In this document: piece after piece, positions 1-6,374 of the stretch
How positions within the stretch are numbered: position 1 is the first letter of the stretch
How the letters are laid out: every line of letters begins with the position of its first letter
The notes under the pieces: generated by a model
What the model was told of the DNA's origin: nothing
The model's input: only the letters and a program-made list of their open reading frames with translations
Databases searched by the model: none
Made by a program: the position numbers and the translations under genes
IMG/VR virus record: IMGVR_UViG_2645727810_000018
Strand: one strand, 5' to 3'
Source of the DNA: a virus
Lineage: Duplodnaviria > Heunggongvirae > Uroviricota > Caudoviricetes
Length of the DNA stretch: 6,474 nucleotides

Positions 1-173
1 TTACCGTCCGTGTCCGTCAGCGGGGTTTTGTTCACCAGAATACTCTGCAGGCCTTTCACCGGGCCTTCTATCGGTCCCTCACCAATCGCATCAATCACAC
101 TCATCATCTGCGTGGATTTGAGATTGTCCTTCGCCTCGCGCGGTGTGTGCGCCTTGCCGCCACCTTTGCCCAT
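1..173 (-). CDS. J: Host specificity protein J (central tail fibre), N-terminal fragment; gene continues past the left edge
   Basis: Minus-strand ATG at 173-171 preceded by an SD-like AAGGGTGAG. My translation is MGKGGGKAHTPREAKDNLKSTQMMSVIDAIGEGPIEGPVKGLQSILVNKTPLTDTDG, which closely matches the N-terminus of lambda J as I recall it (MGKGSSKGHTPREAKDNLKSTQLLSVIDAISEGPIEGPVDGL...). Partial ORF, not in the supplied track. Confidence 0.8.
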   Translation of the reverse strand, partial: MGKGGGKAHTPREAKDNLKSTQMMSVIDAIGEGPIEGPVKGLQSILVNKTPLTDTDG

Positions 174-204
174 TGTCTCACCCTTTACTGTGATAACTGT
201 TACG

Positions 205-238
205 CACAAAAACAACAGGCATCCCTGAGGATGCCTGT
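205..238 (-). terminator. Intrinsic (rho-independent) terminator-like hairpin between I and J
   Basis: Read on the minus strand: perfect 9-10 bp stem CAGGCATCC / GGATGCCTG (plus 216-237) with 4-nt loop, followed directly by TTGTTTTTGTG. On the plus strand the same hairpin is preceded by an A-run and followed by no T-run, so it is orientation-specific. Confidence 0.45.
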
Positions 239-275
239 ATCATCACTGAATAAAACTTCTGAATATCTTCACATT

Positions 276-303
276 TTTACAAACTGACTGTGGTGCTAAT
301 AAT
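276..303 (+). promoter_or_regulatory. Candidate sigma70 promoter on the plus strand, antisense to the tail operon
   Basis: TTTACA (276-281, 5/6 to TTGACA), 16-bp spacer, AATAAT (298-303, 5/6 to TATAAT), inside the AT-rich I-J spacer. Predicted start near 310, about 90 nt upstream of the plus-strand terminator hairpin at 376-401. Motif match only; AT-rich DNA gives such matches by chance. Confidence 0.2.
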
Positions 304-375
304 TTCTCTGCGTTAATGTTTTTTGTCGTGACATAAGAATAATTCCTTACACTTAATCTTCGTAACGCTCCCTCA

Positions 376-401
376 GTTCCGCAACTCTGCGGGATTTTTT
401 T
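376..401 (+). terminator. Intrinsic terminator-like hairpin on the plus strand
   Basis: Stem CCGCA / TGCGG (379-383 with 388-392), extendable with G-U and U-A pairs to 376-395, 4-nt loop ACTC, followed by TTTTTTT (395-401) then ATTCTTTTT. On the minus strand it is not followed by a U-run, so it would terminate plus-strand transcription only. Confidence 0.35.
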
Positions 402-408
402 ATTCTTT

Positions 409-1089
409 TTACCCCTGCCGCCCGATAACCACGACCTTTCCGCCCCCGCCTTCATCACGGGTGCTGATGTCCTGGGATATCCGTCGTGAACCAACCAGCA
501 TTTCCCCGTAAGGCACCGGCATCGGGTTACCCTGGGCAATCATATTGTCCAGTGACGAAAAATACGTGTTCTGTTTACCGTTATCCGTTGCGCGGTAATC
601 CGGTGTTTTTGCCTTCGGTGCCAGCATCTGGGCCACACCACCCAGAATCATGCTGGCACCCAGTGAAAACAGCATCGTGGTGGCAGAAAAACCACCGGCA
701 CTCAGGGCTGTACCCCATAACGCCATCGAGCCTCCGGCAGTGAAGAAAGAGCCCACGATGGCTGCCGCCCCCAGCACAATCCGCAGTCCGCCCTTTCCGG
801 CTCCGGCCAGTCGCGGCACAATATGGATGACCGCCCCCTCACCCAGAGGTTCGTGAAGACGGGCGTACACCGCCTCCGGTGCCGTGTCCTCACCGCGAAT
901 ACGTATCTGGTACCAGCCTTCGTTCATCTGACGGCGGAATCCCGGCACCTGTAACGACAGCGCCCGGATGGCTTCCGCTGCCGTGTTCACGTACAGGCTG
1001 AGGCGGCGGCCAAATCGTTGTAAATCCCCGTGAAGGCAGATGCGTGCCAGTGGCGGTGACGCCAGACAGAATGCGTTCGTCGTTGCCAT
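409..1089 (-). CDS. I: Tail tip assembly protein I
   Basis: 226-aa ORF. C-terminal half (hydrophobic/Gly-rich segment, then ...SQDISTRDEGGGGKVVVIGRQG) resembles lambda I as I recall it; sits between K and J as in lambda. A 103-bp out-of-frame overlap with the K 3' end agrees with the lambda map coordinates as I recall them (K/I overlap also ~103 bp). SD-like GGGAGAGG upstream of ATG 1089. A GTG at 990-988 overlapping the K stop (GTGA) is a possible alternative start. Confidence 0.85.
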   Translation of the reverse strand: MATTNAFCLASPPLARICLHGDLQRFGRRLSLYVNTAAEAIRALSLQVPGFRRQMNEGWYQIRIRGEDTAPEAVYARLHEPLGEGAVIHIVPRLAGAGKGGLRIVLGAAAIVGSFFTAGGSMALWGTALSAGGFSATTMLFSLGASMILGGVAQMLAPKAKTPDYRATDNGKQNTYFSSLDNMIAQGNPMPVPYGEMLVGSRRISQDISTRDEGGGGKVVVIGRQG

Positions 1090-1730
1090 TTTTCGGAATA
1101 CCTCTCCCGTTTACTCAGTTGTTCAGGCAGATGGTGAAGCAGTTCACCGTTGCCGCAGTAAATGGCGGCATGATTGGCCACCGATGCGCCAAAGCAGCAC
1201 AGCAGGATATCGCCCGCCTGTGCAGAGGACAGGGGCACCCGGTAAAAGCCGGTGACCGCCATATTGTCCAGGTAAAGGTTCTGACCGTTGCGCCACCAGT
1301 CATCCTCACGCTCAAAATCCGGCATATCAATTCCCGCCAGATGGTAGGCATCCCGGAACAGCGTGTAACAGTCCGTCACCCCGTGCTCAAAGCGCCGTCC
1401 TGTCAGATGTGGCACACAGCGGAATTTATGAATGTCCCCCCGGCAGACCAGCCACCAGGACAGTGCACTTTTTATCTGCAGCCGCCGGTCGGCCTCGCTC
1501 AGCCAGGGCAGACCACCGGGATGACTGTGGACCAGTGCCACAATCTCCCCCTGCATCTCTGCCCGCAGCCAGTCTTCCGGTGCAATACGAAAATACGCCT
1601 CCGGCTCTGCAGAGATATTCACACAAGGGATATACCGCTCCCCCTCCGGCGTTCTCACCACGAAGCCGCACGACTCCGCAGGCACACACCGCCAGGCATG
1701 CGCCAGAATCGCTGATTCTGTCTGTGTCAT
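987..1730 (-). CDS. K: Tail tip assembly protein K (JAMM/MPN+ and NlpC/P60 peptidase domains)
   Basis: 247-aa ORF. Contains a JAMM-type motif (EIVALVHSHPGG...SEAD) and NlpC/P60-like Cys/His residues (DCYTLF...NHAAIYCGNGELLHH). Start is 5 nt after the ancestral L stop. The 247-aa length fits the full lambda K reading frame. Confidence 0.85.
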   Translation of the reverse strand: MTQTESAILAHAWRCVPAESCGFVVRTPEGERYIPCVNISAEPEAYFRIAPEDWLRAEMQGEIVALVHSHPGGLPWLSEADRRLQIKSALSWWLVCRGDIHKFRCVPHLTGRRFEHGVTDCYTLFRDAYHLAGIDMPDFEREDDWWRNGQNLYLDNMAVTGFYRVPLSSAQAGDILLCCFGASVANHAAIYCGNGELLHHLPEQLSKRERYSEKWQRRTHSVWRHRHWHASAFTGIYNDLAAASACT

Positions 1731-1775: not shown

Positions 1776-2435
1776 TTAGCCAACATGCCTGCGCAGCTCA
1801 CACCCGCGCATGCACTTGCTGCATCTGTCCTTACGGATATCCGTGGTGGGGTTATCGAACTCATCCGCCACCGCAGGACCGTTATACCCGCATTCATCTC
1901 CCCGGTAATCCCACATACAGGTGTTCGCCAGCATGATGCGACCGGGAAACAGCGCCCCGTCCGTCTCCGTCGGTGTGGCCAGCACAAACGAGGCCGTCAT
2001 GGCCGTCAGCTCCGACATCTGCTCCACCACCCAGCGGTCACTCAGCTCCTGCTCCGGGTCCGCCTCCGGATTGCCCGCAACAAAATTCACCGCATCCAGA
2101 AAACGGGCATACACCCGGCGGCGGACCACCGTGGCCCCCACCAGACTCTGCAGGTCCTCCGCCATCCCGGTGACAAGACCAAACAGATTCGACACCGTCA
2201 GCGACGGGCGGGCACTGCTGCCCCGCCCGTTCATCTCAAAGCCACTGCCGTCAATCGGGTATGCCTCATACTGACGCCCCTGCCAGGTAACCGCCTCCCC
2301 TTTTTCATTCAGCTCATTACAGAAAAAATACCGCTCACCACCCTGCACCATCAGGTCAATTTCCCAGAGCACCACCCGCGGTGACTGCTCTGACTTAACC
2401 GACTCGTTCAGACTTTCTTCGTGAATATCCTGCAT
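1776..2435 (-). CDS. L: Tail tip protein L, apparently frameshifted near the 3' end (ancestral frame would end at 1736)
   Basis: 219-aa ORF, MQDIHEESLNE...CSKCMRGCELRRHVG, very close to lambda L including the C-terminal Cys cluster. The last 13 residues expected from lambda L (NFGGFLSINKLSQ) are encoded in the adjacent frame (end of track ORF 1736..1987), which stops 5 nt before the K start. 219 + 13 = 232 aa, the lambda L length. ATG overlaps the M stop (TGATG). Confidence 0.8.
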   Translation of the reverse strand: MQDIHEESLNESVKSEQSPRVVLWEIDLMVQGGERYFFCNELNEKGEAVTWQGRQYEAYPIDGSGFEMNGRGSSARPSLTVSNLFGLVTGMAEDLQSLVGATVVRRRVYARFLDAVNFVAGNPEADPEQELSDRWVVEQMSELTAMTASFVLATPTETDGALFPGRIMLANTCMWDYRGDECGYNGPAVADEFDNPTTDIRKDRCSKCMRGCELRRHVG

Positions 2436-2776
2436 CAGTTCACCACCTGCTCAATCGTACAACTGAAATCACTGTACCGGGCATTATCCGTGACACTCCA
2501 CTCACGGCACACAACCCTCACCGTCCGGTTATGTTTCGGCGGTCGCCACAAAAAGGCACGGTAACCACCATGCCACGATAAAAACTCTTCCAGCCAGCGC
2601 CGGGTCGACTCATCCGTCACCCGGAACACCGCCTGAAACGTCTTCAGTCGAGCATTAAGCCCCGTCGGGCGGCGCTGTTCATAACCGTCACCAAACCGCA
2701 CCCTCACCACCGACGGCTTCTCACTCACCTGCATCCCTTCACGCGGGACCAGATGCAGCGTTTTTATCTCAGCCAC
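2435..2776 (-). CDS. M: Tail tip protein M
   Basis: 113-aa ORF with ...VRVRFGDGYEQRRPTGLNARLKTF...FLWRPP...EQVVN, matching lambda M (...VRKVRFGDGYSQRAPAGLNANLKTY...EFEQVVN). GTG start overlaps the tape-measure stop by 8 nt; its stop overlaps the L start. Confidence 0.85.
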   Translation of the reverse strand: MAEIKTLHLVPREGMQVSEKPSVVRVRFGDGYEQRRPTGLNARLKTFQAVFRVTDESTRRWLEEFLSWHGGYRAFLWRPPKHNRTVRVVCREWSVTDNARYSDFSCTIEQVVN

Positions 2777-5153
2777 TCAGCATTCCTCCGTCACGTCGCA
2801 TGGACAGCATCACCGCCTGCACCCGCTGGTCAATCAGTTGCACAAGGCTGCCCGCAGCTTCCGGCCCTATCTGGCCATTAGTCCCGTCATTCTGAATGGC
2901 GATATGGTAGACCGGGGAATACACCAGACCCGCACTGCCGTACATACTGCCCACCGCTCGCACACCCAGCGAGCCATCCGCCGCCCGCGTCAGAGGCATA
3001 ATGGCTTCAGGACCGGCCTCCCCCATCAGTCCCGCCCCTTTTGCAAAGGCAAAGTACGTGGGCGTATCCACAATACTGTTGCTGTACGCACTCAGGTTTG
3101 CCGAGGTATACACCCCGCCTTTTGCATTGGCCACCGCACCGCCCAGCCAGCCACCAATACTGCCGAGAAATCCTCCCGCACCGGACATACCGTTTGCCGC
3201 CGTCTTAATCCCGTTGACAATCGCGGCATTCATAAGAACTTTTGATATTTCCTGCAGCACTGATGAGGCCCAGCTGCGCCATTCCACTTTATTTCCGTTC
3301 AGCATCTCCGTGATGTTATTCACCATCCCTGAGATACCCTCCGTCGCAAGCTGTGCTGCCTGTGAGGCGTAATCGGACGCATTATCCACCCAGTTACTGA
3401 ATCCCTCCTGCAGCCCTTTCTGCCAGTCCGCACGCTGCACATCCGATTCGGCATAAAAGGCTTCCTGCTCTTTCAGACGTTCACTCAGATACTGCGCGTT
3501 CTGTGCCAGCGCCTGTCTGTAAAAATCCTCACTGATATCCCCGGTCTGATACTGAGACTGAAGGTCCGCATCCTTCTGGCGGAAACTGTCGCGGATCTGC
3601 TGCAACTCCCGCATGCGTTCACGGAGCCGCTCTCCCTGCCCGTACCCCAGCAGTTCCGCTTCATTTGATGCACGCGCAGCCACATTATCATTCTTCAGGG
3701 TCTCTTCCCGGGACCGCAACTGCTCCCGGATTTTTTGCTGGTCAATCAGGGCCGCATTGCGCAGCAGTTCCTGCTTCTGCATCTCCGTCAGGGTTTTCAG
3801 TTCGCCCTGCGCAGTCTGGTATTTCAGCTTCGCCAGCTCTGTATTCTGCCCCGCAAGTGCCAATTGCTCTTTCTGCTGCTTCAGCAGCCGGGAAAAACTG
3901 TCTTCCGCTTTTTCCGTCTCTGATTTTCCACCCCGGGATTTGGGTTTATTCGCCTCGTTATTGCGCCAGGCTTCCAGGGCATTACTGATATAACGTTGTC
4001 TCGCCTCCTGATACGGTTCACCCACAAAACCGAGGTCATCCGCCGCATACCCCAGCCGGACGCGCTCTTTTTCTTCCCCTTTCAGTCTGGACAGGGCCAG
4101 CTCACGCTCTGTTTTTGTCAGGGCACTCTGCTGTTTATCATCCAGAGTGGCCTGTGGCAGCCGTAACGGCACATTCACCAGTCCCTGCCGCTGCTGAAGC
4201 AGTTCATTACCCAGCCCCAGCAGACGGTTGAATTCCGTATGCTGACCGTTCATAACCAGCATGGACTGGTACACCTTATTCTGCTCTGCCGCCTGCTGAC
4301 GAATTAACGCCACACGACGGTCTTCCAGCCCGGCAAGCACATCCTGAATGGACTGCGCTTTTTCCTGCATCTGTGCCAGACGGGACTGCTCAACGGCAAG
4401 CTGCTCTGTTGCCTGAGAAAGCCCTTCCGTCACGGTCTTCACCGAGGTCAGATGGTTTATCATGAATCCGTCACCGGTCGTCCAGCCAGGGTTAGCCAGA
4501 ACATACTGATATCCAGCGATTTTTTCCTGCAGGGATTTCACCCGACTGGCCTGTTCATCAATCAGCCGGTTCTGCTCTGCCAGCGCCGCCCGTGTTCGTC
4601 CTTCATTATCTGAGGCTTCAGGCAAAGACATTGACAGCGTTTTATGCGCGATTTCATCTATCGTCAGTGCATACTGGCGCGCAGACTCCCTGGCCTGCTC
4701 CTGATTCTGGTACAGCGTATACCATGCTGCAGCCCCCAGCATCACCAGTCCGGGTACGCCACCAACCAGCCCCAACGCACCACTCATCAGACGTGAGCCC
4801 ACCGCCGTTGTACTGTTCAGCGCATTCTGGGCGGCGCTTCTGGCAGCAATATTTCTGTTCAGGCGTTCCTGTGTGGCCGCCAGACGGGCCTCTGCAGCAA
4901 TCTGCATCTCCGTCCCGCGGGCTGCCGCCACAGCCTGCTGAGCACAGTACACGGCTGCCCTTGCCCGCGCCGTGGCAATCTGCGTCCCCCTGAACTGTGC
5001 TTCCGCCAGTGCAACTTCATTACGTGCAGCCGTCACAAGTCCTGCCGTGGCAGACACCGCTCCGGAGGCCATATTGCCAAAGTACCGGGCAACCCCGACG
5101 GCAACCAGCGCGCCCAGCGGCTGTTGCCACATTATCAATATGACCGGCAACAC
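2769..5153 (-). CDS. H: Tail tape measure protein, C-terminal ~790-codon segment (frame B)
   Basis: 794-aa ORF. Long Q/E/R/K/L-rich predicted coiled-coil middle, Gly-rich hydrophobic segment (GAGGFLGSIGGWLGGAVANAKGG), and C-terminus ...IAIQNDGTNGQIGPEAAGSL...RRDGGMLSG matching lambda H (...NNDGTNGQIGPAA...DGGLFSGGGR). The annotated GTG start at 5153 is probably not a real initiation site; it looks like the downstream half of a frame-disrupted gene. Confidence 0.8.
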   Translation of the reverse strand: MLPVILIMWQQPLGALVAVGVARYFGNMASGAVSATAGLVTAARNEVALAEAQFRGTQIATARARAAVYCAQQAVAAARGTEMQIAAEARLAATQERLNRNIAARSAAQNALNSTTAVGSRLMSGALGLVGGVPGLVMLGAAAWYTLYQNQEQARESARQYALTIDEIAHKTLSMSLPEASDNEGRTRAALAEQNRLIDEQASRVKSLQEKIAGYQYVLANPGWTTGDGFMINHLTSVKTVTEGLSQATEQLAVEQSRLAQMQEKAQSIQDVLAGLEDRRVALIRQQAAEQNKVYQSMLVMNGQHTEFNRLLGLGNELLQQRQGLVNVPLRLPQATLDDKQQSALTKTERELALSRLKGEEKERVRLGYAADDLGFVGEPYQEARQRYISNALEAWRNNEANKPKSRGGKSETEKAEDSFSRLLKQQKEQLALAGQNTELAKLKYQTAQGELKTLTEMQKQELLRNAALIDQQKIREQLRSREETLKNDNVAARASNEAELLGYGQGERLRERMRELQQIRDSFRQKDADLQSQYQTGDISEDFYRQALAQNAQYLSERLKEQEAFYAESDVQRADWQKGLQEGFSNWVDNASDYASQAAQLATEGISGMVNNITEMLNGNKVEWRSWASSVLQEISKVLMNAAIVNGIKTAANGMSGAGGFLGSIGGWLGGAVANAKGGVYTSANLSAYSNSIVDTPTYFAFAKGAGLMGEAGPEAIMPLTRAADGSLGVRAVGSMYGSAGLVYSPVYHIAIQNDGTNGQIGPEAAGSLVQLIDQRVQAVMLSMRRDGGMLSG

Positions 5154-6012
5154 CGTTCAGCACGCCGGAGAGCGTTTTCGTCACCCCGCTGGCCTCATTC
5201 GCACCACCCACCCAGGCCATAAAGGCGTTTTCCACCTTTGTGATCCCGTCAGAGACCGTTTCCGGCATGGCGGCATATTCATCACGCAATACCCCCAGCT
5301 GGCTGATTAACGCAGGAACGACTTTATCCGCCGTCAGTTGACCATCGTCCGCCATCGCCTTAAGATCTTTACGGGCCACGCCCATACCCGCAGCCAGTGC
5401 ACGAACGATCCGGTCACCACTTTCATTGACCGAATTAAATTCCTCACCGCGCAACACACCCTGTGCCAGCGCCTGGCTGAACTGGGTGATCACCGAACCC
5501 GCCTCAGCCGTACTGGCACCGGAGATTTTCAGCCCCGTGGAAATGGCCTCCGTCACCTTCAGCACATCACCAGCACTGTAACCATATTCACGCATCGAGG
5601 CAGCCGAACGGGCAAACAGGGCCGCATTATCCGAAAAAGCCGTACCCGTCCGCTGACTGATATCCATCAGCACTTTCTGTGATGACGAAAATTCATCGGA
5701 TGACTGCGACGCCTGTTTCAGACGGGCATTCACGGAACTCCACTCATCAGCCAGAGAAATCAGGTGTCCGGTGGCAAAGGCACCGGCAAATGCCCCAGCC
5801 ATTCCGACAGCCGAAGCGCGGATTTCCGTCAACTGGCTGTTCAGCTCAGCCAGGGCACGTCGCTGCTCCCGGGCGACCGCAGCAGCCTGACGCCCGCCAT
5901 TCTGCAGGGTCCGGTAATATTCACTGCCCATACGGGAAGCCCGCTGGATCTCCGACTGGAATGACTGCGAATTTGCCGAAATTTTGATAATCAGTTCACG
6001 TAACGTCACCAT
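5020..6012 (-). CDS. H: Tail tape measure protein, N-terminal ~330-codon segment (frame A)
   Basis: 330-aa ORF starting ATG 6012 with SD-like GGAGAAAGG upstream. Contains a segment (GYSAGDVLKVTEAISTGLKISGASTAEAGSVITQFSQALAQGVLRGEEFNSVNESGDRIVRALAAGMGV) that looks like the conserved core of TP901-type tape measure proteins. Its last ~30 residues (CRRGCPVLWQYGLRSGVCHGRTCDGCT) look out of frame; overlaps the frame-B ORF by 134 nt. Confidence 0.8.
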   Translation of the reverse strand: MVTLRELIIKISANSQSFQSEIQRASRMGSEYYRTLQNGGRQAAAVAREQRRALAELNSQLTEIRASAVGMAGAFAGAFATGHLISLADEWSSVNARLKQASQSSDEFSSSQKVLMDISQRTGTAFSDNAALFARSAASMREYGYSAGDVLKVTEAISTGLKISGASTAEAGSVITQFSQALAQGVLRGEEFNSVNESGDRIVRALAAGMGVARKDLKAMADDGQLTADKVVPALISQLGVLRDEYAAMPETVSDGITKVENAFMAWVGGANEASGVTKTLSGVLNGVAGHIDNVATAAGRAGCRRGCPVLWQYGLRSGVCHGRTCDGCT

Positions 6013-6028: not shown

Positions 6029-6051
6029 GTAAAAAAACCGCCTCAGCGGTT
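6029..6051 (-). terminator. Terminator-like hairpin (possible attenuator) between T stop and tape-measure start
   Basis: Minus strand: AACCGC-TGAG-GCGGTT (plus 6036-6051) followed by a U-run (plus A-run 6031-6035), in the 47-nt spacer between the T stop (6060) and the TMP ATG (6012). Confidence 0.3.
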
Positions 6052-6059
6052 CTCATCAT

Positions 6060-6374
6060 TCATGACTGTGCTGCAAAGCTCAGCGCGTCTTCCAGCGCCG
6101 CAAACGGATCCACCTCCGGCTTATCCTCATCCTCGCCCCAGCAGAGCATGGCGTCCTTCAGTGCAACATTCATCCCCTGTGCCCCGAAAACCGCTTTCAC
6201 GATCTGTGCATTACGGATATCCCCGCGCTCATCACCCAGCGGGGATACCCTGTCGAACTCCATCCACATCATCGCCTCGCTCGCACTCAGGCTGTGCCGC
6301 AGTTCGGATAAGGTGCGCCCCAGACGGAGCGCAAGTCGCATCAGAAAGCGAATTTCCGGGCGGGCTACTTTTTT
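6060..6374 (-). CDS. T: T segment of tail assembly chaperone GT, reached by −1 ribosomal frameshift from G
   Basis: Frame open from 6389 to stop at 6060 (track ORF 6060..6341 is its ATG-started part). No SD before the internal ATG. Overlaps the G 3' end in the −1 frame, with a slippery heptamer at the overlap. Position immediately upstream of the TMP gene is the conserved G/GT arrangement. Product continues ...KKVARPEIRFLMRLALRLGRTLSELRHSLSASEAMMWMEFDRVSPLGDERGD... Confidence 0.65.
   Translation of the reverse strand, partial: KKVARPEIRFLMRLALRLGRTLSELRHSLSASEAMMWMEFDRVSPLGDERGDIRNAQIVKAVFGAQGMNVALKDAMLCWGEDEDKPEVDPFAALEDALSFAAQS

Follow-up and report, generated by a model that had tools for sequence, protein, structure and literature searches.

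The window examined here, a stretch of 6,474 nucleotides from the virus record IMGVR_UViG_2645727810_000018 (Caudoviricetes), is the tail-assembly segment of a lambda-like late operon with its genes on the minus strand. Part of the spacer between tail assembly gene I and tail-tip gene J (positions 241-408) is very probably a moron with an RNA payload, namely a small RNA (sRNA) gene of the PasB/EcOnc22-24 family inserted between the two genes, which would be transcribed from the plus strand, antisense to the late operon. The element itself is already known, and the window carries a third allele type of a published sRNA. Judged from their sequences, PasB of enteropathogenic Escherichia coli (EPEC) and EcOnc22-24 of enterohaemorrhagic E. 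coli (EHEC) appear to be alleles of one family, a link that is absent from both the 2021 PasB table (PMC8550237) and the 2026 preprint on PasB (10.64898/2026.05.13.724894).

The original prediction, made by a model from the sequence alone, had described an unusually long I-J gap (~235 bp against ~60 bp in lambda) that was AT-rich over 241-410 (~34% GC) and contained no open reading frame (ORF) above 18-22 codons, and all three statements held on measurement. The spacer occupies 174-408 and is 235 bp long, compared with 60 bp for its lambda counterpart (15445-15504), while the GC content of 241-408 is 34.5%, compared with 60% in gene I and 57% over the whole window. Of the ORFs that lie wholly within the spacer none is longer than 22 codons, and it is to such contained ORFs that the statement applies. 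Two longer mechanical ORFs, 147-287 on the plus strand and 243-539 on the minus strand, begin in the flanking genes and extend into the spacer; the latter, of 98 amino acids, was rejected as it starts out of frame within I. An Rfam scan of the spacer returned no family at E <= 1, and a scan of the EPEC and Sakai I-J loci none at E <= 0.5.

The identity of the element follows from two sets of published RNAs. PasB was mapped to the minus strand of NC_011601.1 (1466343->1466261, 83 nt), in prophage PP6 of EPEC O127:H6 E2348/69 (Pearl Mizrahi et al. 2021, PMC8550237). The plus strand of that record has the end of the tail assembly gene at 1466255 and the start of gpJ at 1466496, so that PasB falls within the I-J spacer, on the strand antisense to these genes. 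The RNA was seen by northern blotting and by ligating and sequencing interacting RNAs (RIL-seq) in uninduced cells, fell strongly in the delta-hfq strain (log2 fold changes of -6.79 and -2.39), and took part in 37 RIL-seq interactions, mostly as the 3' partner via its last ~46 nt (PMC8550237). Over its entire 6.5 kb the window shows 96.5% identity with prophage PP6, and the two I-J spacers are 89% identical.

The second set comes from EHEC O157:H7 Sakai, in which EcOnc22, EcOnc23 and EcOnc24 were reported as peaks of Hfq binding, obtained by cross-linking with cDNA analysis (CRAC), in the prophages Sp15 (Stx1), Sp14 and Sp11; EcOnc22 gave a northern band of ~85 nt in an uninduced culture and was destabilised in delta-hfq (Tree et al. 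2014, PMC4104026). All three peaks adjoin I-J junctions. Over its first 23 nt, the northern probe common to the three, GGGAGAGAACGATGAAGATTAAC, is complementary to the plus strand of the Sakai spacers, which are identical in the three prophages, at the PasB-homologous position that corresponds to approximately 345-375 of the window. The remainder of the probe text has no match to the Sakai spacers, possibly as a result of PDF extraction. The published EcOnc22 coordinates refer to NC_002695.1, and when read on NC_002695.2 they land on the J-proximal hairpin; the position is settled by the probe sequence. The offset between the two versions is one we take to be about +136 to +142 at the stx2 locus.

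Fifteen alleles, of the EPEC and Sakai types and of one further type, went into a covariance model (R1), with all window-type sequences excluded. It matched the plus strand of the window at 310-401 with 60.3 bits (E 5e-11) over its full length (model positions 1-96), while the next match reached 13 bits. At the RNA level, the identity of the window to PasB is 73% (71% when restricted to the 83 nt reported) and that to EcOnc22 is 75%; PasB and EcOnc22 are 74% identical to each other. The window and PasB have in common the I-J spacer, the antisense strand, the position of the promoter, a TTAATCTTC-type motif, the terminator arms and a U7 tail; they differ in the promoter hexamers (TTCACA/TATAAT in PasB, TTTACA/AATAAT in the window), in the number of triplets in the ARN tract (five in PasB, three in the window) and in the T at position 373 within the terminator stem of the window. 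Likewise, EcOnc22/23/24 share the locus, strand and architecture, with an Hfq-dependent EcOnc RNA of ~85 nt, whereas their -35 region and body differ from those of the window.

The coordinates of the module, its neighbours and the flanking genes are collected in Table 1. A plus-strand promoter (TTTACA-16-AATAAT, 276-303), a terminator hairpin with a T7 run (376-401) and between them a gene for a ~90-nt sRNA antisense to the late operon had all been predicted, and each was recovered: the promoter by an independent scan, the terminator by a scan that shifts its limits slightly, and the sRNA through homologous RNAs demonstrated at the same position and on the same strand in EPEC and EHEC. The promoter is one of just two promoter-like sites in the 6.5 kb (3.0 expected). 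This putative promoter aligns with TTCACA/TATAAT of EPEC and with the -10 AATAAT of Sakai, the -10 variants across alleles being TATAAT, AATAAT and TATCAT, and the predicted start, G310, is invariant. The predicted RNA (310-401) folds with -20.2 kcal/mol (z = -2.7).

Table 1. Features of the window, with the evidence for each or its place in the operon
Feature	Position	Strand	Evidence
Small RNA gene of the PasB/EcOnc22 family, ~92 nt from the predicted start	310-401	+	covariance model R1; alignment to E2348/69 PasB and Sakai EcOnc22
Predicted sigma-70-type promoter of the sRNA: -35 TTTACA 276-281, 16-bp spacer, -10 AATAAT 298-303	276-303	+	consensus scan, 10/12 matches
28-nt block with almost no variation, upstream of the sRNA promoter	250-277		variable only at 256, 264 and 265 among 33 unique promoter-bearing modules
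(ARN)3 tract AAGAATAAT, candidate Hfq distal-face site	335-343	+	(ARN)3-5 run at the same position in 4/4 allele types
Anti-Shine-Dalgarno-like TTCCTT	343-348	+	sequence
Conserved motif TTAATCTTC, candidate seed	353-361	+	conservation across alleles
Intrinsic terminator of the sRNA, stem 375-396, T7 run 395-401	375-401	+	scan
Late-strand intrinsic-terminator-like hairpin: 10-bp stem 215-238, 4-nt loop, tract TGTTTTTGTG at 205-214	205-238	-	scan and fold
J leader with ribosome-binding site (AAAGGGTGAGACA-ATG)	174-204	-	read off the sequence
Tail-tip gene J, 5' end, first 57 codons (MGKGGGKAHTPREAKDNL...)	1-173	-	translation; homologous coding sequence named gpJ in O111 11128 and E2348/69
Tail assembly gene I	409-1089	-	Pfam Lambda_tail_I, E 3.9e-15
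K	987-1730	-	late operon gene order
L	1776-2435	-	late operon gene order
M	2435-2776	-	late operon gene order
Tape measure gene, split	5020-6012 and 2769-5153	-	Pfam TMP_3; Phage_HK97_TLTM and Tape_meas_lam_C
T	6060-6341	-	late operon gene order

Comparison of 36 unique modules showed a set of fixed elements embedded in mosaic sequence. Conserved are the 28-nt upstream block, the -10, G310 with GCGTTA after it, a T-run, an (ARN)3-5 tract, a CUCC/UUCC motif, the TTAATCTTC motif (with its (A/G)ATCTT core present in all 36), the terminator arms CCCGCAG/CTGCGGG and the U-tail, and the only break in the arms is T373 of the window. Mosaic parts are the -35 region, the -35/-10 spacer and nucleotides 16-45 of the RNA. 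At least four body types with 70-75% mutual identity could be distinguished, the window type being the commonest (36 of the 79 typed loci). Depending on the allele, the ARN tract was matched by 0-3% of shuffled sequences. In most of the allele folds the TTAATCTTC and CUCC/UUCC motifs stay unpaired, while the minimum-energy fold of the window pairs most of TTAATCTTC, at 353-356 and 361; a seed directly upstream of the terminator has been proposed for PasB (Zhu, Shabalina & Storz 2026, 10.64898/2026.05.13.724894). The Rho-independent terminator and the U7 tail, a presumed Hfq proximal-face site, are retained in the window allele.

Within the block upstream of the promoter lies a CRP-like dyad, TCTGA-N6-TCACA (258-273), centred ~44.5 bp upstream of the predicted start. 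It is the sole match to TGTGAN6TCACA with at most one mismatch in the window (0.20 expected), 9 of its 10 core positions are retained in 33/33 unique promoter-bearing modules, two of the three variable positions of the block fall inside its N6, and its distance to the -10 stays constant within 1 bp across alleles despite the mosaic sequence in between. As judged from sequence, CRP is the best match to the dyad among CRP, FNR and Cra: set by hand against what we take to be the FNR consensus, the dyad agrees at 6/10 positions, and in a similar comparison with what is presumably the Cra consensus TGAA-N4-TTCA fits while the central bases do not. Spf is repressed by cAMP-CRP. The level of PasB was higher in static overnight LB than in virulence-activating medium, and Spf showed the opposite trend (PMC8550237). 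Control of the promoter by cAMP-CRP, i.e. catabolite control, is nevertheless put forward only tentatively, and we lean towards doubting it. The centre of the dyad lies at -44.5 from the predicted start, compared with -41.5 for a canonical class II site, the whole 28-nt block is conserved beyond the half-sites, and the growth conditions compared for PasB also differ in growth phase and oxygen. The block could equally be an UP-like element, the site of another factor or a recombination linker.

The I-J spacers extracted from 117 loci with relatives of protein I fall into four junction states. The first is a spacer of 59-60 bp, seen in lambda itself and in relatives that come from E. coli, from Shigella and from other Escherichia; its length is exactly 60 bp in lambda and at 24 further loci. 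The second, of 234-240 bp, is that of the window, EPEC and Sakai. In the third (336-344 bp) the sRNA module is kept and the J-proximal part is swapped for ~210 bp of other DNA, and in the fourth (~800 bp) an antisense gene for the Cu/Zn superoxide dismutase SodC (sodC; Pfam Sod_Cu, E 3.9e-32) is accompanied by an sRNA remnant without the usual promoter and upstream block. Searches of lambda, of 60-bp junction loci and of Citrobacter loci with the R1 model gave no match; since it is silent in lambda and in the 60-bp class, the module is an insertion relative to lambda. A long AT-rich spacer is accordingly not a universal property of these junctions, and the proposal of inserted DNA is supported for 241-408. 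It probably does not extend to the minus-strand hairpin that had been counted as part of the insert, of which lambda has an analogue.

Several further observations were made in the course of the junction survey, in which loci carry L numbers. In the third state (L054 2182-2524 and ~30 other IMG/VR loci), the ~210 bp contain a bidirectional terminator-like hairpin, AAACCCCGGTATC-AGCA-GATACCGGGGTTT, and gave no Rfam match and no evident conserved ORF. In the fourth (L084 2182-2981; also L051 and L041), sodC is followed on the same strand by a GC-rich hairpin and then by a PasB-type body and terminator. Sixteen loci (L009-L022, L026 and others) have a spacer identical to that of lambda. Their assemblies bear the names of unrelated organisms (Neobacillus, Pseudomonas, Shewanella, Bradyrhizobium, Enterococcus and others) and the contigs are mostly of low coverage, which looks like contamination with lambda control DNA. 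PasB-bearing E. coli-like contigs also occur within assemblies labelled Streptomyces, Parendozoicomonas and a Clostridiales metagenome-assembled genome.

The late-strand hairpin just upstream of J was present as predicted (205-238) and is stable, with a fold of -18.3 kcal/mol (z = -3.9) and compensatory changes between alleles (ATCC/GGAT versus ACCC/GGGT). The 60-bp spacer of lambda has a late-strand hairpin of its own, AAACCGCC-TGCG-GGCGGTTTTGT, plus a T-tract. The two junctions are alike in having a GC-rich late-strand hairpin and then a T-tract within a few tens of bases of the J start, on its upstream side, and unlike in that the lambda hairpin has no sequence homology to that of the window and its spacer lacks the sRNA module. 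Because an analogue occupies the same place in the short spacer of lambda, the hairpin at 205-238 is placed outside the inserted DNA and, by this analogy, is probably not part of the insertion; we take 174-240 to correspond to the ancestral junction, and the inserted module to be 241-408. In lambda, the hairpin with its T-tract (AAACCGCCTGCGGGCGGTTTTGTCATTT; L124 746-805, equal to lambda 15445-15504) stands ~20 nt upstream of the J start, and we know of no described function for it. For a second, divergent sRNA that would be read from the minus strand and end at 205-238 no support was obtained: inspection by eye gave only weak promoter-like sequences (an extended -10 resembling TGTAAAAAT at 281-273) that the Sakai allele does not conserve, and R1 scored just 11.9 bits there. 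No minus-strand Hfq peak is among those reported for the Sakai I-J spacers (PMC4104026).

The recurrence of the spacer at other places was likewise confirmed, with Rfam offering no match. A search with 174-408 found it in 149 phage records, mostly Stx-converting phages, and in complete E. coli genomes at 2502 places in 1327 of 5426 genomes, the median being 2 per genome and the maximum 8. In EHEC O111 genomes other than 11128 the identity to the spacer is 99.6%. A census of PasB gave 1158 hits, mostly single-copy (10.64898/2026.05.13.724894), and we infer that a BLAST census based on one allele probably undercounts the family. The sRNA locus is unannotated in all RefSeq and GenBank records examined; because of this, and because there is no Rfam family, it is routinely missed in annotation.

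A number of observations weigh against the assignment, or against the gene being active in this copy. Expression has been demonstrated for homologues that are 73-75% identical to the window allele; the reported 5' end of PasB corresponds to approximately position 324, ~15 nt further downstream than the -10 would predict, which makes the 5' end uncertain; and EcOnc22-24 were entered as having an unknown target by Sy & Tree (2021, PMC7873438). Furthermore, the -10 of the window is AATAAT and not TATAAT, and the residue at 373 is G in every other unique module (outer 5' arm TCCC[G]CAG), T being found in 1/36, the window's own. This T373 breaks the outer terminator stem of the family, CCCGCAG/CTGCGGG, and leaves an inner 9-bp stem with a 4-nt loop, at -11.0 kcal/mol compared with -14.4 for the G form. 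Finally, the prophage carrying the window looks defective, so that its sRNA copy could be decaying.

Taken together, the weakened terminator, the AATAAT -10 and the split tape-measure gene, along with the frameshifted tape-measure gene and J in the related genome CP148570, could mean that the window holds a relic, a PasB homologue that no longer yields a functional RNA. This is regarded as unlikely, since the inner hairpin and U-tract still satisfy the terminator criteria, the expressed Sakai allele also has the -10 AATAAT, and the same allele, with T373 unchanged, is present in O111:H- 11128, whose spacer differs from that of the window at one base, in the loop of the late-strand hairpin. A role in cis, in which the sRNA or convergent transcription would act on the late I-J transcript, by pairing with its perfect complement between the two genes and setting off processing or by interference with late transcription, or in which the late mRNA would sponge the sRNA, is about equally improbable as the principal function. 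The gene lies entirely within the I-J intercistronic region on the opposite strand, and all alleles keep it at this one junction, as such a role would suggest, but PasB forms Hfq-dependent chimeras with many partners in trans in uninduced cells. The cis and trans roles are compatible and not mutually exclusive.

That the spacer serves the late operon alone, as an attenuator, a terminator or an mRNA-stability element for I:J, with the plus-strand signals arising by chance, is very improbable. The strong late-strand hairpin and U-tract upstream of J, seen here and in lambda, would fit this explanation, as would the lack of enrichment of promoter-like sites in the window (2 versus 3.0 expected). 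However, abundant Hfq-bound plus-strand RNA arises from the homologous loci, as seen by northern blotting, CRAC and RIL-seq, the plus-strand -10, start and terminator are conserved amid mosaic neighbours, and lambda needs just 60 bp at this junction. Least credible is a very small protein, for instance from the 12-codon late-strand ORF after AAGGA that AAGGAATTATTCTT-ATG opens, because homologous spacers differ by indels not divisible by three: changes in T/A-run length and other non-triplet indels shift the frame between alleles, leaving the frames of this ORF and of a 6-codon plus-strand ORF unconserved, the peptide MSRQKTLTQRNY of the window is in a different frame in EPEC, and all spacer-contained ORFs are of at most 22 codons.

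An sRNA moron of the PasB/EcOnc22-24 family accordingly remains the preferred reading, and it can be set beside two known systems. AgvB and AsxR (PMC4104026) are also prophage-borne, Hfq-binding short RNAs encoded by moron-like inserts in lambdoid prophages, and they too join a conserved 3' portion to a 5' portion that varies and have ARN motifs; in contrast, they are 51-60 nt long and lie downstream of PR' and Q near the stx/moron site and not at I-J. Identity with AgvB or AsxR was rejected, as Tree et al. put both at the PR' moron site and neither a sequence match nor a match to the Rfam families RF02702 and RF02703 was found here. Protein-coding lambdoid morons, in so far as they are described by Juhala et al. 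(2000, as cited in PMC4104026), are likewise extra DNA between conserved late genes, with their own promoter and terminator, a deviant base composition and expression from the repressed prophage. The window shows extra DNA relative to lambda, its own predicted promoter and terminator, and a GC content of 34.5% versus 57-60%, and PasB and EcOnc22 were both detected in uninduced cultures (PMC8550237, PMC4104026). The difference lies in the payload, which is a protein in those morons, as in the sodC example at the same I-J junction, and an RNA here.

As regards the surroundings of the module, the top match of the window among complete E. coli genomes is 98.7% identical. The two tape-measure ORFs, 5020-6012 and 2769-5153 on the minus strand, overlap in different frames and together span 3244 nt, while the intact gene of O111 11128 has 3243 nt, and the annotation of CP148570, the complete genome that comes closest, marks both the tape-measure gene and J as frameshifted. 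The split may reflect a defective prophage or an indel error in the read. Terminator-like sites were more numerous in the window than expected (10 observed versus 4.8 +/- 2.4 in the scan). One late-strand hairpin of this kind lies inside the coding region of gene M, at 2555-2574 on the minus strand (GGCATGGTGGTTACCGTGCC then TTTTTGTGGC), and another strong one, AACCGCTGAGGCGGTTTTTTT, between T and the tape-measure gene. The latter, with the end of gene T, is spanned by a weak Rfam isrK match (6031-6098, minus strand) of 27.1 bits (gathering score 50; E 0.0078), which is below threshold and probably reflects merely the hairpin and U-run.

Whereas the sequence anatomy of the module, its homology and its insertion status were observed directly in the window and its relatives, we infer the activity of this allele, the identity of its seed and its regulation by analogy with the published RNAs. 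In the lysogen, where the Q-dependent late operon would be silent, host sigma-70 polymerase would initiate at about G310 and terminate at 399-401, in the terminator at 375-401, giving an RNA of ~80-92 nt with a U-tail. By analogy, this RNA may bind Hfq through its U-tail and ARN tract, and may then pair in trans with mRNAs of the host and of the accessory genome via TTAATCTTC and/or the CUCC/UUCC (UUCCUU) motif. The terminator of the sRNA would be one-directional and would therefore present no block to Q-modified late transcription, while the hairpin at 205-238, presumably a separate feature of lambda type, would stop polymerase without Q modification before it reaches J. After induction, late mRNA with perfect complementarity to the sRNA may sponge it. 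A wider reading joins these elements into a multi-allelic family of I-J sRNAs with a fixed scaffold (the upstream block, the -10, the ARN tract, the TTAATCTTC motif and the terminator), a swappable 5' and middle part, CRP control and sponging by late mRNA; taken as a whole, this combination is speculative and we would not yet favour it.

The general picture of phage morons and of Hfq-dependent sRNAs is unchanged by these results. What is added is the link between PasB and EcOnc22-24, the allele structure of the family, the four states of the junction including that with sodC, the analogy with the lambda hairpin and a candidate CRP-like site. The case also illustrates that a reading of raw sequence can recover a genuine prophage-borne regulatory RNA. 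The I-J junction emerges as a recurrent cargo site, which may be empty or hold the sRNA, the sRNA with extra DNA, or sodC with an sRNA remnant, and the family link, the common third allele and the cargo site should be useful for studies of sRNA networks in pathogenic E. coli. If the wider reading is true, different prophages would deliver different target specificities from one and the same locus.

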